Assembly: GCA_045805065.1 (NCBI GenBank)
Contig: JBJMMA010000247.1
Location: 1 to 40,026 of the forward strand
Direction: 5' to 3'
Length of the DNA: 40,026 bases
Source of the DNA: Bdellovibrionia bacterium
Lineage (GTDB): Bacteria; Bdellovibrionota; UBA1018
The translations under genes were made by a program, and so were the position numbers. The notes beneath the pieces were generated by a model that was given only the letters and a program-made list of their open reading frames with translations, was not told where the DNA came from and did no database searches. Below, piece after piece: positions 26,861-39,213 of this stretch (position 1 is the stretch's first letter; each line of letters begins with the position of its first letter).

Positions 26861-29356
26861 TTAATTCAATTTTTCCGTAAGAGCCCCGGAGATACAAGTG
26901 CCAGAAGATACGCGCACAGACTCTCCCCATAAAAAAGCCTCGCGAAGTCTTTGCACTGTAGGCCGCTGACCATCCATCACCCGCCGAAGCTCAGGATGAT
27001 TGGTCCAGTGAGGGTGGAGTGCGAACAAGATCATGATGTCTTCATCCGCCGTCCGCCGCTTAATCAGCTTCTCAACCCACTCTGGGTGGTTGGCCGAGTG
27101 AGGCTGGGTAAGAACATGCTTTGCAATCGCCACATCCAGATCAAAGTTATTCTTCTCGAGCAAGTGCTCAACCCATTCAGGGTGATTCGCCCAATGAGGC
27201 TGGGAAAGCACGTAGGTAGCGATCTGTCGGTCAGCGGTGTTCTTTTTCAAAATACGCTCGACCCACTCCGGATGATCTTTCCAATGAGGTTGGGACAAGA
27301 CAGAGCCCGCGATCGAAGCATCGACTGTTCCCTTATCCAGAAGGTGCTCGACCCAATCGGATCGATGCTGCCAACATGGCTGGGACAAAACATGGAAGGC
27401 GATATCTTTATCAGAGGTCCCCTTCTTTAAAAGTCTCTCAATGAACTCAGGATGATCCTTCCAGTGCTCTTTACCTAGAGCACTCAATAGTAAGTAATAA
27501 TCTAGGTTTCCCTTATCCAAATAATGCTTCACCCACTCAGGATGATTCTTCCAATGCTCCTTGGAGAGAACGTCTGAAATGATCGCAATGTTGGTTTGCA
27601 TCTCATCCTTTTTCAAAAAGTGCTCAACAAGCTCAGGGTGATTTCTCCATCGGGACTGGGACAGCACTCTATGGATGAACATATGATCCCCGGTGCCTTT
27701 TTTCAAAACCGCGTCGACCACTTTTGGACGCTGAATGGCTACATCAAGATCAAACCATTCCCATAGAGCCGTCGACTGATTCAGGTTAGGAGAATGTTCA
27801 ATTTCGGACAGGACAAGCCCCTCGATTTCATTCCACTCTCTTTCGCTTAACGTGTGAAATTTGGCCGACATGCGCCTTTTAAACTTCTCCATGATCCCCC
27901 GATCACCTGCCTCGAGCTTGATCTGACCCGTTGTCAGCATTCTAAAATATTCGACCGGGCCGATAGTGAGGCTTTCCGGAATCACTCTTAATGCTGCTTT
28001 GTTTTTAACGATGACAAAGCTTTCCTCTGGCACGCGAATGAAGTCCTCTCCCTCGCGCGCATTTGGATCAAGATGAAAACGAATGGTGAGCCCTGTCCCC
28101 TTTGCGCCTTTTGTGCCCACTCTTGTATAGAAGCCGTCGCCAAATGCAGCTGCTTCGCCGTGGCCGTTTTCACGAGAAGTCAGAACGTTGGGATCTCCCG
28201 TGTGAGCCCGCGTGATGCTTTCGTAGGCCAGGAAGTTATTTGTTTCATGAGCGACAACATCAAGGCCGAGCTCGCGAGCGGTTTTTCCGTTGCCCTTGCC
28301 CACGGCCTGAGTTCGCAATGGCTCTTTATTCATCCACCAGGAAAGTGACTCCACCGTCTGCATGTCATCTTTAATCGACGATAGCTTTTTCCTGAGGCCC
28401 AATTTCTCAAGCGTGTTCCATGCGTACTCGATGTTGACGGCATTTTGAAAAAGCTTCTTGCCGTTTTTTTCTATCCATTTTGCGACGTACTCGTTTTTTG
28501 AGTCTCGTGCGGGATCAAATTCATCGATTACTTTTTTGATGCGAGCAAGGTCCTCAGGCCTGATCTTGAGCTCATATTGAAATGCCTTTGTAAGAAATCG
28601 GATCGCAGAAAGGATCGGCGGATTACGGCCTTCTTTTGCAAACTTTGTCGTCTTGTGAAGCGAAGAGAAATAATAATGAAGCGCGCCATCGTGAACGTCT
28701 TTGAGAAACTGCGGCTCTTTCGATTTCCAGTCTCTCACGTCTCTGACCACAGAATCACCCGCGCGTGGTCTTGTGATCTCGACCAATCCCGTCGAGTTGG
28801 AGTCCGTGTGTTGATTCATGAAGTCGGGGTTATTCAAGATGGCTTGCTTATCGCCCATGTCTTGAGTCAGCAAGCGCACTTCCCATGCGGTCTTTCCGCC
28901 CTGAAGATGCGGATATCTTTCCTGGAGCGCTGTTTGAAGCTTTTGGGCTTGATCGGCATTGCCGTCGATCACGATATCTAAGTCCTGTGTGGAGCGATAG
29001 ATATTGGTGTAGTCGTAATCAAACCGATCCTTTTGAAATCGCTTGTCACCTTTCTCGCGCTGCATGTCCCATTTTACATAATGGGCATATCCCGCAGCTG
29101 TTCCGCCAAAGAGCCAAGCCCTCACTCCGAGTCTTGCAGCTTCCTGCTCAATGAACTTAAACTCTTCGACTCGCTTCAGACGATCCGCAATACCTTGCTC
29201 CAGCTCCTGGATGGTTGGAACCGCCTCTGATTGAGAAGACGCAGTGAGTCCAGTGGAGGCAGCCTGTGCAAAGGGAGGCAACCCAAACGCTTGTTGACCT
29301 GCGACGAGTAAGCTCAATGAGACAAAAGCTGAAACACTCTTCCTAAGGGCTCTCAT
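26861..29356 (-). CDS. secreted NTase-like + ART-like + ~30-aa repeat protein (paralogue 4)
   Basis: Signal peptide; WLFGG..DLD..E; ILSAIRF; AHET..GDGFY; about 8 VLSQPHW..HPEW repeats; ATGA overlap. Confidence 0.7.
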   Translation of the reverse strand: MRALRKSVSAFVSLSLLVAGQQAFGLPPFAQAASTGLTASSQSEAVPTIQELEQGIADRLKRVEEFKFIEQEAARLGVRAWLFGGTAAGYAHYVKWDMQREKGDKRFQKDRFDYDYTNIYRSTQDLDIVIDGNADQAQKLQTALQERYPHLQGGKTAWEVRLLTQDMGDKQAILNNPDFMNQHTDSNSTGLVEITRPRAGDSVVRDVRDWKSKEPQFLKDVHDGALHYYFSSLHKTTKFAKEGRNPPILSAIRFLTKAFQYELKIRPEDLARIKKVIDEFDPARDSKNEYVAKWIEKNGKKLFQNAVNIEYAWNTLEKLGLRKKLSSIKDDMQTVESLSWWMNKEPLRTQAVGKGNGKTARELGLDVVAHETNNFLAYESITRAHTGDPNVLTSRENGHGEAAAFGDGFYTRVGTKGAKGTGLTIRFHLDPNAREGEDFIRVPEESFVIVKNKAALRVIPESLTIGPVEYFRMLTTGQIKLEAGDRGIMEKFKRRMSAKFHTLSEREWNEIEGLVLSEIEHSPNLNQSTALWEWFDLDVAIQRPKVVDAVLKKGTGDHMFIHRVLSQSRWRNHPELVEHFLKKDEMQTNIAIISDVLSKEHWKNHPEWVKHYLDKGNLDYYLLLSALGKEHWKDHPEFIERLLKKGTSDKDIAFHVLSQPCWQHRSDWVEHLLDKGTVDASIAGSVLSQPHWKDHPEWVERILKKNTADRQIATYVLSQPHWANHPEWVEHLLEKNNFDLDVAIAKHVLTQPHSANHPEWVEKLIKRRTADEDIMILFALHPHWTNHPELRRVMDGQRPTVQRLREAFLWGESVRVSSGTCISGALTEKLN

Positions 29357-39213: not shown

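Follow-up and report, generated by a model that had tools for sequence, protein, structure and literature searches.

Predicted exported proteins of a Bdellovibrionia bacterium that join a nucleotidyltransferase-like to an ADP-ribosyltransferase-like domain

Why would a bacterium export enzymes whose co-substrates lie in the cytoplasm? The question is raised by five tandem genes on the minus strand of a 40,026-nucleotide stretch of DNA (the window; contig JBJMMA010000247.1 of assembly GCA_045805065.1) from a Bdellovibrionia bacterium. Transcribed in the order E-D-C-B-A with no further open reading frame (ORF) interspersed, they encode four paralogues, A to D, in which a predicted nucleotidyltransferase (NTase) and a predicted ADP-ribosyltransferase (ART) follow a Sec-type signal peptide, and a lead protein, E, with a DHH-type phosphoesterase region. 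Nucleoside triphosphates (NTPs) and nicotinamide adenine dinucleotide (NAD+) are cytoplasmic co-substrates and are scarce outside the cytoplasm. The reading we favor, at a probability of roughly 55%, is that A–D are Sec-exported effectors that use NTPs and NAD+ in the cytoplasm of another cell, likely bacterial prey. The genes are:

37120..39213, minus strand: gene E, the lead gene, 697 amino acids (aa), an ORF with a TTG start, comprising a Sec-type signal, an unassigned N-terminal region, then the NrN-like DHH region and, at the end, a Cys tail
34838..37126, minus strand: paralogue D, 762 aa, from ATG 37126; core 35615-36988, Cys tail 34841-34885, 4 PHW/HPEW-type repeats by motif search
32235..34841, minus strand: paralogue C, 868 aa; core 33333-34688, Cys tail 32238-32282
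29353..32238, minus strand: paralogue B, 961 aa, from ATG 32238; core 30751-32118, Cys tail 29356-29400
26861..29356, minus strand: paralogue A, 831 aa, from its ORF and its alignment to B–D

Each of A–D is laid out as a signal peptide, an NTase head and neck, an ART domain, a fast-evolving helical-repeat C-terminus and an amphipathic Cys tail. In A, the parts lie as follows:

29258..29356, minus strand: Sec-type signal peptide, residues ~1-32, with AQA before the likely cut (sequence reading and our own heuristic)
28325..29224, minus strand: class II NTase head and neck, residues 45-344, with G84 G85, D125-x-D127 and D185
27950..28312, minus strand: ART-fold domain, residues 349-469, with H370-x-T, S394-R395, E401, G-F-Y410 and D438-F
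27029..27679, minus strand: repeat array of 30-33-residue units, consensus I-x3-VLS-x-PHW-x2-HPEWVE-x2-L-x-KG-x2-D
26864..26908, minus strand: Cys tail, SSGTCISGALTEKLN, with the Cys 10 residues before the end

The enzymatic reading is carried by the core. An AlphaFold2 model of its 456 residues, built from an alignment of 41 diverse sequences, reached a predicted local distance difference test score (pLDDT) of 91.2 and a predicted template modeling score (pTM) of 0.91, values that point to two domains held in a fixed arrangement as one rigid unit. Foldseek comparison of the model with the PDB returned class II CCA/A-adding enzymes and E. coli poly(A) polymerase, with 4wbz_A as the best match (E 2.9e-5) and 22 matches at E<=0.001. 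The class II features present are a Pol-beta-like head and a helical neck, both predicted, and a conserved GG/DxD with a third carboxylate. Active-site conservation was read from 265 sequences aligned on the core profile (238 family representatives and 27 ORFs of the window organism's own genome); G40 G41, D81, D83 and D141, which are the core numbers of G84 G85, D125, D127 and D185 in A, are invariant wherever aligned (260-262 of 265 sequences). Model, fold matches and invariant motif together support the class II assignment that the original prediction had made from the letters. Fold matches of the core in BFVD proved to be ordinary class II NTases and were set aside.

In the model, an ART domain appears to replace the tRNA-binding body and tail of class II enzymes, because most NTase fold alignments end near model residue 300 (a few nominally reach ~360-407) and residues 305-425 align to ART folds, Tpt1 chains among them. 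The neck string NPPILSAIRF of the core resembles the class II DPxRxLRAxRF region but appears to lack its E-D-x-x-R base-reading residues, for which reason the NTP specificity may differ from that of CCA-adding enzymes.

Folded alone, the second domain gave a pLDDT of 84.9 and no significant Foldseek match, the best being the rifampin ADP-ribosyltransferase Arr-2 (E 0.34). Most of the further matches (MbcT, RES, Tne2, TreX/TreTu, RhsP2, Scabin, NatT and CARDS) are ART-fold toxins that use NAD+. Its motifs read HxT, SR, GE, GxGFY and xDF: H326, S350, E357, Y366 and D394 are invariant wherever aligned (again 260-262 of 265), R351 occurs in 259/260, and the same set in domain numbering (H27, S51, R52, E58, Y67, D95) is invariant in 42 sequences. 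The H, R, Y and D of this set equal the signature H,[RK],[FY],[DE] tabulated for Tox-ART-HYD1 in PMC3482391. The corresponding Pfam model (PF15633) scored E 0.055-0.16 on A–D, at 13.1-14.6 bits against a cut-off of 25, and reached E<=1 in just 1/41 alignment members. ART-fold matches and invariant residues thus support, at the level of a model, an H-Y-D-type ART with predicted NAD+ use, placed after the NTase as first proposed. A search with the ART profile for stand-alone relatives retrieved only 8 proteins, all short and lacking a Pfam domain, which are probably fragments.

At the level of fold, then, the core is a class II NTase head and neck plus an H-Y-D-type ART; by sequence it is outside the modelled families. 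PF01743 (PolyA_pol) has no match at E<=1 in A–D or in the 41 alignment members, Pfam as a whole finds no recurring family in those members, and a PDB sequence search with A returned nothing relevant. Our literature search, covering open full text and leaving aside subscription-only papers and closed supplements, found no description of an NTase-ART fusion, of secreted Bdellovibrio ARTs or of the C-terminal signal. No described family covers the core, and the initial impression of an architecture unlike any described system has held up.

Export is the second element of the argument. Read by eye, the N-termini of A–E each show a basic n-region followed by a hydrophobic stretch and then an AxA-like site (residues ~1-26 in E), and every complete paralogue of the organism's own genome has the same layout. 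Our own heuristic, which is lenient and yields predictions only, called 179/238 family representatives signal-peptide-like against 0/238 internal control segments; of the rest, 30 were negative, many with visibly truncated starts, and 29 were not scorable. The Sec-type signal claimed at the outset for all five proteins is seen by reading in each and backed by these counts across the family.

These counts bear directly on the alternative that the signal peptides are false and that the proteins are cytoplasmic enzymes of RNA repair or phage conflict, namely a CCA-like NTase, a Tpt1-like ART and a DHH nuclease, comparable to Gad2. The nearest clusters by a protein language model are indeed Gad2 (Atlas score 0.87, 115-117 shared features), described in bioRxiv 10.1101/2023.05.01.538930 as an NTase-domain anti-Gabija protein, but by the tool's own note such a score is a lead only. 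The Gad2 hidden Markov model (HMM) has no match at E<=1 in the 41 members, tblastn with the core found nothing at E<=1 in 50,697 phage records, and PADLOC assigned no family to A–D. Tpt1 chains among the ART matches would suit a cytoplasmic role, as would the best family of E, a CRISPR-associated DHH protein, and the cleavage of SAM-AMP by NrN (PMC11346440). Set against these are the signal-peptide counts, proteins that are nearly free of Cys, and neighborhoods in which no RNA ligase, kinase or defence gene was found, either at the locus or among the clustered neighbors of 75 family loci. We consider a cytoplasmic role highly improbable.

Beyond Sec, the own genome encodes four secretins, the sole secretion markers found. 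In B. bacteriovorus, Sec signals are by themselves enough for a reporter to be released, and arrival in the bdelloplast is reported for one Sec-dependent protein (both from PMC12622784).

The third element is the C-terminus. In each of A–D, a Cys stands exactly 10 residues ahead of the C-terminal end and opens the pattern C-[IV]-x3-L-x3-L; their mature proteins contain at most one other Cys, and in C the tail Cys is the only one. A Cys within the last 20 residues occurs in 203/238 representatives against 3.3% expected, most commonly 11th from the end, while Cys frequency elsewhere is 0.17%. The hydrophobic residues of the tail are spaced to fit one face of a helix. E, which is unrelated to A–D, ends in ..SCQLQQLKKGLSKW, and the pattern is kept in its relatives:

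37123..37167, minus strand: Cys tail of E, ..PSCQLQQLKKGLSKW, same pattern as A–D

The motif extends to non-family proteins. Among ORFs of at least 250 aa in the own genome, it occurs in 13/947 signal-peptide-like ORFs and 3/1830 others (odds ratio 8.5, Fisher p 1.4e-4), where shuffled tails gave 2.3 on average and at most 7. Among the bearers are a J-domain protein with a signal peptide (DnaJ, E 9.5e-25), a Ser/Thr protein kinase, a phosphatase of the NIF/FCP type and an HExxH protein. By their sequences, the ORFs with both a signal peptide and the tail look like a wider set of exported "cytoplasm-type" enzymes. Such ORFs were recorded in the own genome at L080 (C60:26125-27246), L089 (C121:4613-5818), L092 (C60:30694-31677) and L081-L084; a 1600-aa AAA protein of the same genome (L085, G000:C51:22470-27272) also ends in the motif. 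No NCBIfam sorting-domain model matched any tail at E<=1. Disulfide formation with a carrier, lipidation and anchoring are all possibilities for the Cys.

A lone Cys conserved in an exported protein hints at covalent attachment, and this is the starting point for a surface or envelope role, in which the repeats would bind the surface of prey or self, the enzymes would modify envelope polymers and the Cys would tether the proteins to the outer membrane. The variable C-termini do resemble recognition modules. NTP and NAD+ donors are not known at the cell surface, however; on reading, the sequences showed neither a lipobox nor a transmembrane anchor, and no adhesin or envelope-biosynthesis neighbors were found. 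On balance we think an envelope role very unlikely.

Between core and tail lie the variable parts. The C-termini of A–D are arrays of 30-33-residue repeats, with VLSxPHWxxHPEWVExxLxKG as their consensus, followed by a degenerate last repeat and the tail; B has 9 units by motif search, the last being the degenerate pre-tail unit. Pfam Ank_5 gave E 3e-4 on the repeats, below its cut-off, and the repeat profile matched no ankyrin or other repeat family in the PDB. Unit length and the sub-threshold Ank_5 match suggest that the repeats may be ankyrin-like, but given the PDB result we assign them to no family. Among 39 long relatives scanned, 34 had no Pfam domain at E<=1e-5, 2 had a strong FGE-sulfatase match and 1 had HEAT repeats. 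RasGEF and PTS_EIIA_2 matches in relatives were rejected as fragments without a passing stretch.

Repeats of this kind invite a eukaryotic target, be it a protist, a fungus or an animal cell, with the repeats binding proteins of the host or prey and the Cys lipidated there as a membrane anchor. A single conserved Cys beside an amphipathic helix would suit that fate, and ankyrin or HEAT matches in some relatives, together with the co-tailed exported J-domain protein, Ser/Thr kinase and NIF phosphatase, point the same way; yet J-domains and kinases act in bacteria too, the repeat profile matches no ankyrin protein in the PDB, and the RasGEF match of a relative is one of the rejected fragments. 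Those type III, IV and VI secretion system (T3SS, T4SS, T6SS) markers that were tested were not found, and cultured members of the phylum prey on bacteria. We regard a eukaryotic target as unlikely.

Comparison of the four paralogues separates a constant from a variable part. A–D align end to end at 59-66% identity. Over ~450 columns of the core, protein identity is 78-84% and DNA identity 66-80%; the proportion of synonymous differences (pS) is 0.66-0.77, that is, synonymous sites are saturated, and that of nonsynonymous differences (pN) is 0.10-0.135, with a ratio of nonsynonymous to synonymous substitution rates (dN/dS) of ~0.07 where computable. In the C-terminal parts, pN rises to 0.36-0.47. 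Because synonymous sites are saturated while core pN is low, A–D are, judging from these substitution patterns, old duplicates kept constant by strong purifying selection and not recent copies. The description of the core as almost invariant was slightly strong in its wording: the paralogy stands, and ~80% identical is accurate.

Gene E adds a third activity, mapped to:

37534..38085, minus strand: DHH-type phosphoesterase region of E, residues ~377-560, with an IDHH motif (PADLOC and PDB sequence match)

PADLOC DHH_CorA matches residues 384-522 (E 1.7e-6), and PDB entry 9lqa, NrN, matches residues 459-557 (E 0.012) with IDHH aligned on IDHH; the two support the DHH phosphoesterase that had been proposed for the lead gene. 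Pfam DHH/DHHA1 has no match on E at E<=1; with the DHHA1 GGGH motif in mind, an HGGD string was noted in E. NrN, a phosphodiesterase of the DHH/DHHA1 kind, cleaves SAM-AMP, a nucleotidyl conjugate (PMC11346440). Residues ~30-270 of E (window 38400-39120, minus strand) matched HipA-like kinase domains with template modeling (TM) scores of 0.58-0.69 by row, a lead only, as the Atlas model has a pLDDT of 0.61. E has three relatives only among 5.8 billion proteins, and in the own genome there is one copy with a partial paralogue. It is 49% identical to P0241 at an orthologous locus, L006, in a related metagenome-assembled genome (MAG), and its linkage to the family is seen only here and at L006; E is not a general partner of the NTase-ART family.

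A nuclease-like E, together with Sec signals and secretins, could also be read as extracytoplasmic scavenging, in which RNA, NTPs and NAD+ leaked into the periplasm of producer or prey would feed the predator, with the NTase tailing RNA destined for decay, the ART working as an NADase and the DHH enzyme as a nanoRNase. The DHH region does resemble nanoRNase/NrN-type phosphodiesterases, several of the ART-fold matches (MbcT, RES, Tne2) are NAD+-degrading toxins, and the failure to find an immunity gene in the 75-locus neighborhoods also fits. Left unexplained, however, are the more than 20 paralogues with fast-evolving repeat C-termini and a tail common to a J-domain protein, a kinase and a phosphatase; NTPs and NAD+ are, moreover, scarce where the enzymes would work, and E is linked to just one array. 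Scavenging is, in our judgment, an unlikely explanation.

How the five genes are tied together was read directly from the junctions:

37120-37126, minus strand: E/D junction, ATGGTGA overlap, letters GAAATGGTGAGA
34838-34841, minus strand: D/C junction, ATGA overlap, letters CCGATGAGT
32235-32238, minus strand: C/B junction, ATGA overlap, letters AAAATGATG
29353..29356, minus strand: B/A junction, ATGA start/stop overlap, letters AAATGAGAG

ORFs and junction letters confirm the proposal of five minus-strand genes overlapping at all four junctions. The TTG start codon of E is preceded by a Shine-Dalgarno-like run, GGGGAGGAGG. A–D are translationally coupled behind E, an exported NrN-like DHH phosphodiesterase bearing the same tail. 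Flanking the array are:

39214..39314, no strand: divergent intergenic region of 101 bp, 5' of E, the presumed promoter region
25989..26762, minus strand: exported cupredoxin-like protein, 257 aa, from ATG 26762 (Pfam Cupredoxin_1, E 4.9e-10)
25991-26012, minus strand: terminator-like hairpin at the end of the cupredoxin-like gene (terminator-like site scan)

No promoter consensus was found in the 101-bp region. The scan found no terminator-like site between A and the cupredoxin-like gene and one at the latter's own end, and for this reason the cupredoxin-like gene is probably co-transcribed as the sixth gene of the unit. Sequencing-run listings named no RNA holder and only DNA runs of low share. 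Around the array lie ordinary housekeeping genes, among them those for thiolase, CoA transferase, enolase, BipA and a disulfide oxidoreductase. At window 19689-20537 (minus strand), 6 kb off the array, is a gene for an intramembrane protease of CPBP/Rce1-like type; some C-terminal sorting signals are processed by proteases of the CPBP/Rce1-like family.

We then asked how far this arrangement extends. The own genome (4.2 Mb, 94% complete) holds 27 family matches, comprising 19 close paralogues that are N-terminally complete (2 of them cut C-terminally by a contig end), 2 distant complete paralogues at 37-38% identity and 6 fragments at contig ends. Tandem arrays occur on several contigs, with four members on C247, three each on C7 and C188, and two each on C176, C213 and C222. 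A core search returned 465 proteins by word index; among clusters at 50% identity it found 654 representatives, of which 472 reach E<=1e-30. Among the best 150 matches, most cover the whole core, which starts mostly at residue 17-95, and a minority are truncated or lie behind N-terminal extensions. When one genome per prokaryotic species was scanned, 139 stretches were confirmed. The 75 loci listed are all in MAGs labelled Bacteriovoracaceae, Pseudobdellovibrionaceae, Bdellovibrionales, Oligoflexia, Bdellovibrionota or older Delta-/Proteobacteria. Within the phylum the distribution is patchy (21/401 sampled Bdellovibrionota genomes, 18/204 genera), and first-look candidate counts of 57 and 62 in the window organism's genus suggest a local expansion there.

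Clustering the neighbors of the 75 loci, from 17 MAGs, gave no conserved specific partner or immunity-like gene; only generic families recurred (ABC ATPases, histidine kinases and AAA proteins), at no more than 6/75 loci. The neighborhood search across Bdellovibrionota that had been called for thus yields a lineage-restricted family with no conserved neighbor, and the early remark that no immunity gene is interspersed is borne out. The notion of a fixed five-gene system is not: A–D belong to a family of 27 matches, and E joins them only here and at L006. That locus (L006:708-9714) holds two family genes, not four, in the order E, family gene, 1.5-kb gap, family gene, cupredoxin; the gap contains small ORFs only, one with a signal-like start. 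Copy number at the locus therefore changes between relatives. The cupredoxin orthologue (L006:9811-10581) keeps its position at 76% identity, and the family cores are ~77% identical.

Distant relatives in other Bdellovibrionota genomes break the core apart. Two NTase-only proteins of ~1150 aa each, in tandem at L093:1997-5437 and 5551-9060, keep the signal peptide and the Cys tail. At L094:1871-3709 and L095:1710-3584 (both minus strand), the ART is intact and the NTase-like region apparently lacks GG and DxD on reading of the sequence; signal peptide and Cys tail are again retained. The two enzyme modules are therefore separable. In one 2327-aa protein (P0220; G015:C172), three AAA-type ATPase regions and an M41 peptidase precede the NTase-ART core, and an FGE-sulfatase domain follows it.

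What the data show is the gene structure, the folds, putative active sites that are strictly conserved beside diversifying C-termini, the size and range of the family, the lack of a conserved neighbor and the common Cys tail. Built on these, the favored reading of A–D as effectors would run as follows. After Sec export, a secretin-type route, similar to a type II secretion system (T2SS), would release the proteins, which would then reach the cytoplasm of another cell; the phylum makes bacterial prey the likeliest target. There, the ART domain would use NAD+ and the NTase NTPs, modifying RNA ends or proteins, while the variable repeats would choose the target or location and the Cys tail would serve some common step of trafficking or anchoring. 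For the DHH enzyme of E, the substrate to cleave might be a phosphodiester product, be it a short RNA or a conjugate of the nucleotidyl or ADP-ribosyl kind.

Several points weigh against this reading. Delivery into another cell and its targets, like export past the periplasm and cell entry, are what we infer, and we know of no route across the target membrane. The organism is uncultured, with a lifestyle taken from its phylum only. VipB (T6SS) and VirB4 (T4SS) had no match in the 94%-complete genome, and the signal-peptide heuristic flags 34% of the genome's long ORFs. Some tail-bearing non-family ORFs look cytoplasmic (a galactokinase and an AAA ATPase), so the motif has chance matches too. 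In the core, catalytic roles are assigned to invariant residues by likeness of motif, without superposition, and A–D stay below threshold for every model of Pfam, NCBIfam and PADLOC (PADLOC, 0 families at E<=0.1).

A bolder version holds that the fusion represents a new class of predator-delivered enzymes, in which NTase and ART act sequentially on one substrate and the Cys tail is a new tag that directs proteins of Bdellovibrionota to a further step of translocation or anchoring. ADP-ribosylation of, for example, an RNA end or a side chain of a protein would be followed by its nucleotidylation, the NrN-like DHH enzyme would trim or reverse the product, and the tag would mark NTase-ART proteins, the J-domain protein, the kinase, the phosphatase and the DHH enzyme alike. 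We hold this version to be rather unlikely.

To our knowledge, it is poorly understood how Bdellovibrio-like predators kill their prey, control its cytoplasm and pass proteins across its inner membrane. A large, strictly conserved and unannotated enzyme family, with 654 cluster representatives, offers candidate predator-to-prey effectors, and concrete ones, because its members appear to need cytoplasmic co-substrates yet carry export signals. Nucleotide chemistry of a new sort, acting on RNA or proteins, might come to light through the NTase-ART fusion, and the Cys tail that these proteins have in common provides a testable handle on a trafficking step.

Comparison with known systems places the family. 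Like polymorphic toxins, its members are predicted to be exported, are multi-domain with a constant and a variable part, and are expanded in copy number; the polarity is reversed, however, with enzymes constant and N-terminal and the C-terminus variable, and there is no immunity gene, RHS, HINT, cassette structure or trafficking domain of the type V, VI or VII secretion systems (T5SS/T6SS/T7SS). With the H-Y-[E/D] ARTs (diphtheria toxin, PARPs, Arr, Tpt1/KptA, Tox-ART-HYD1/2), the second domain shares the ART fold, HxT, GFY and an acidic residue opening a strand, but it is minimal (~120 residues) and, in close relatives, always downstream of the NTase; the HYD1/2 polymorphic toxins described in PMC3482391 have an immunity partner, which the NTase-ART family does not. 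MenT/AbiEii NTase-fold toxins add nucleotides to tRNA 3' ends (PMC10435456). They offer a works-like analogy only, being a minimal NTase/DUF1814 family that is cytoplasmic and paired with an antitoxin; an apparent AbiEii kinship, at E 0.044 in 1/41 members, was dismissed as noise. SidE-type effectors of Legionella combine an R-S-E ART with a different phosphodiesterase (PDE) fold within one protein, and the likeness, a works-like analogy with no sequence or fold evidence of kinship, lies in pairing an NAD+-using ART with a phosphodiesterase step. Gad2 (PF26128), introduced above from its preprint (bioRxiv 10.1101/2023.05.01.538930), is a protein of ~400 aa with a predicted NTase domain, but it is a cytoplasmic phage protein whose putative kinship is by feature score only. 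With NrN, which is CRISPR- or CorA-associated, E aligns in the DHH motif and its surroundings; E differs in its 697 aa, its predicted export, an extra unrelated N-terminal region of 370 residues and the Cys tail, and it has neither a CRISPR or CorA context nor a Pfam DHH match. Relative to the class II NTases of Pfam PolyA_pol (PF01743), finally, the core has ~40 residues between GG and DxD and an ART domain in the place of body and tail, and its proteins appear to be exported, are multi-copy and are confined to one phylum. A multi-domain enzyme effector that is secreted and combines known folds, as proposed here, is familiar in kind; novelty in kind is a real possibility for the chemistry and for the tail.

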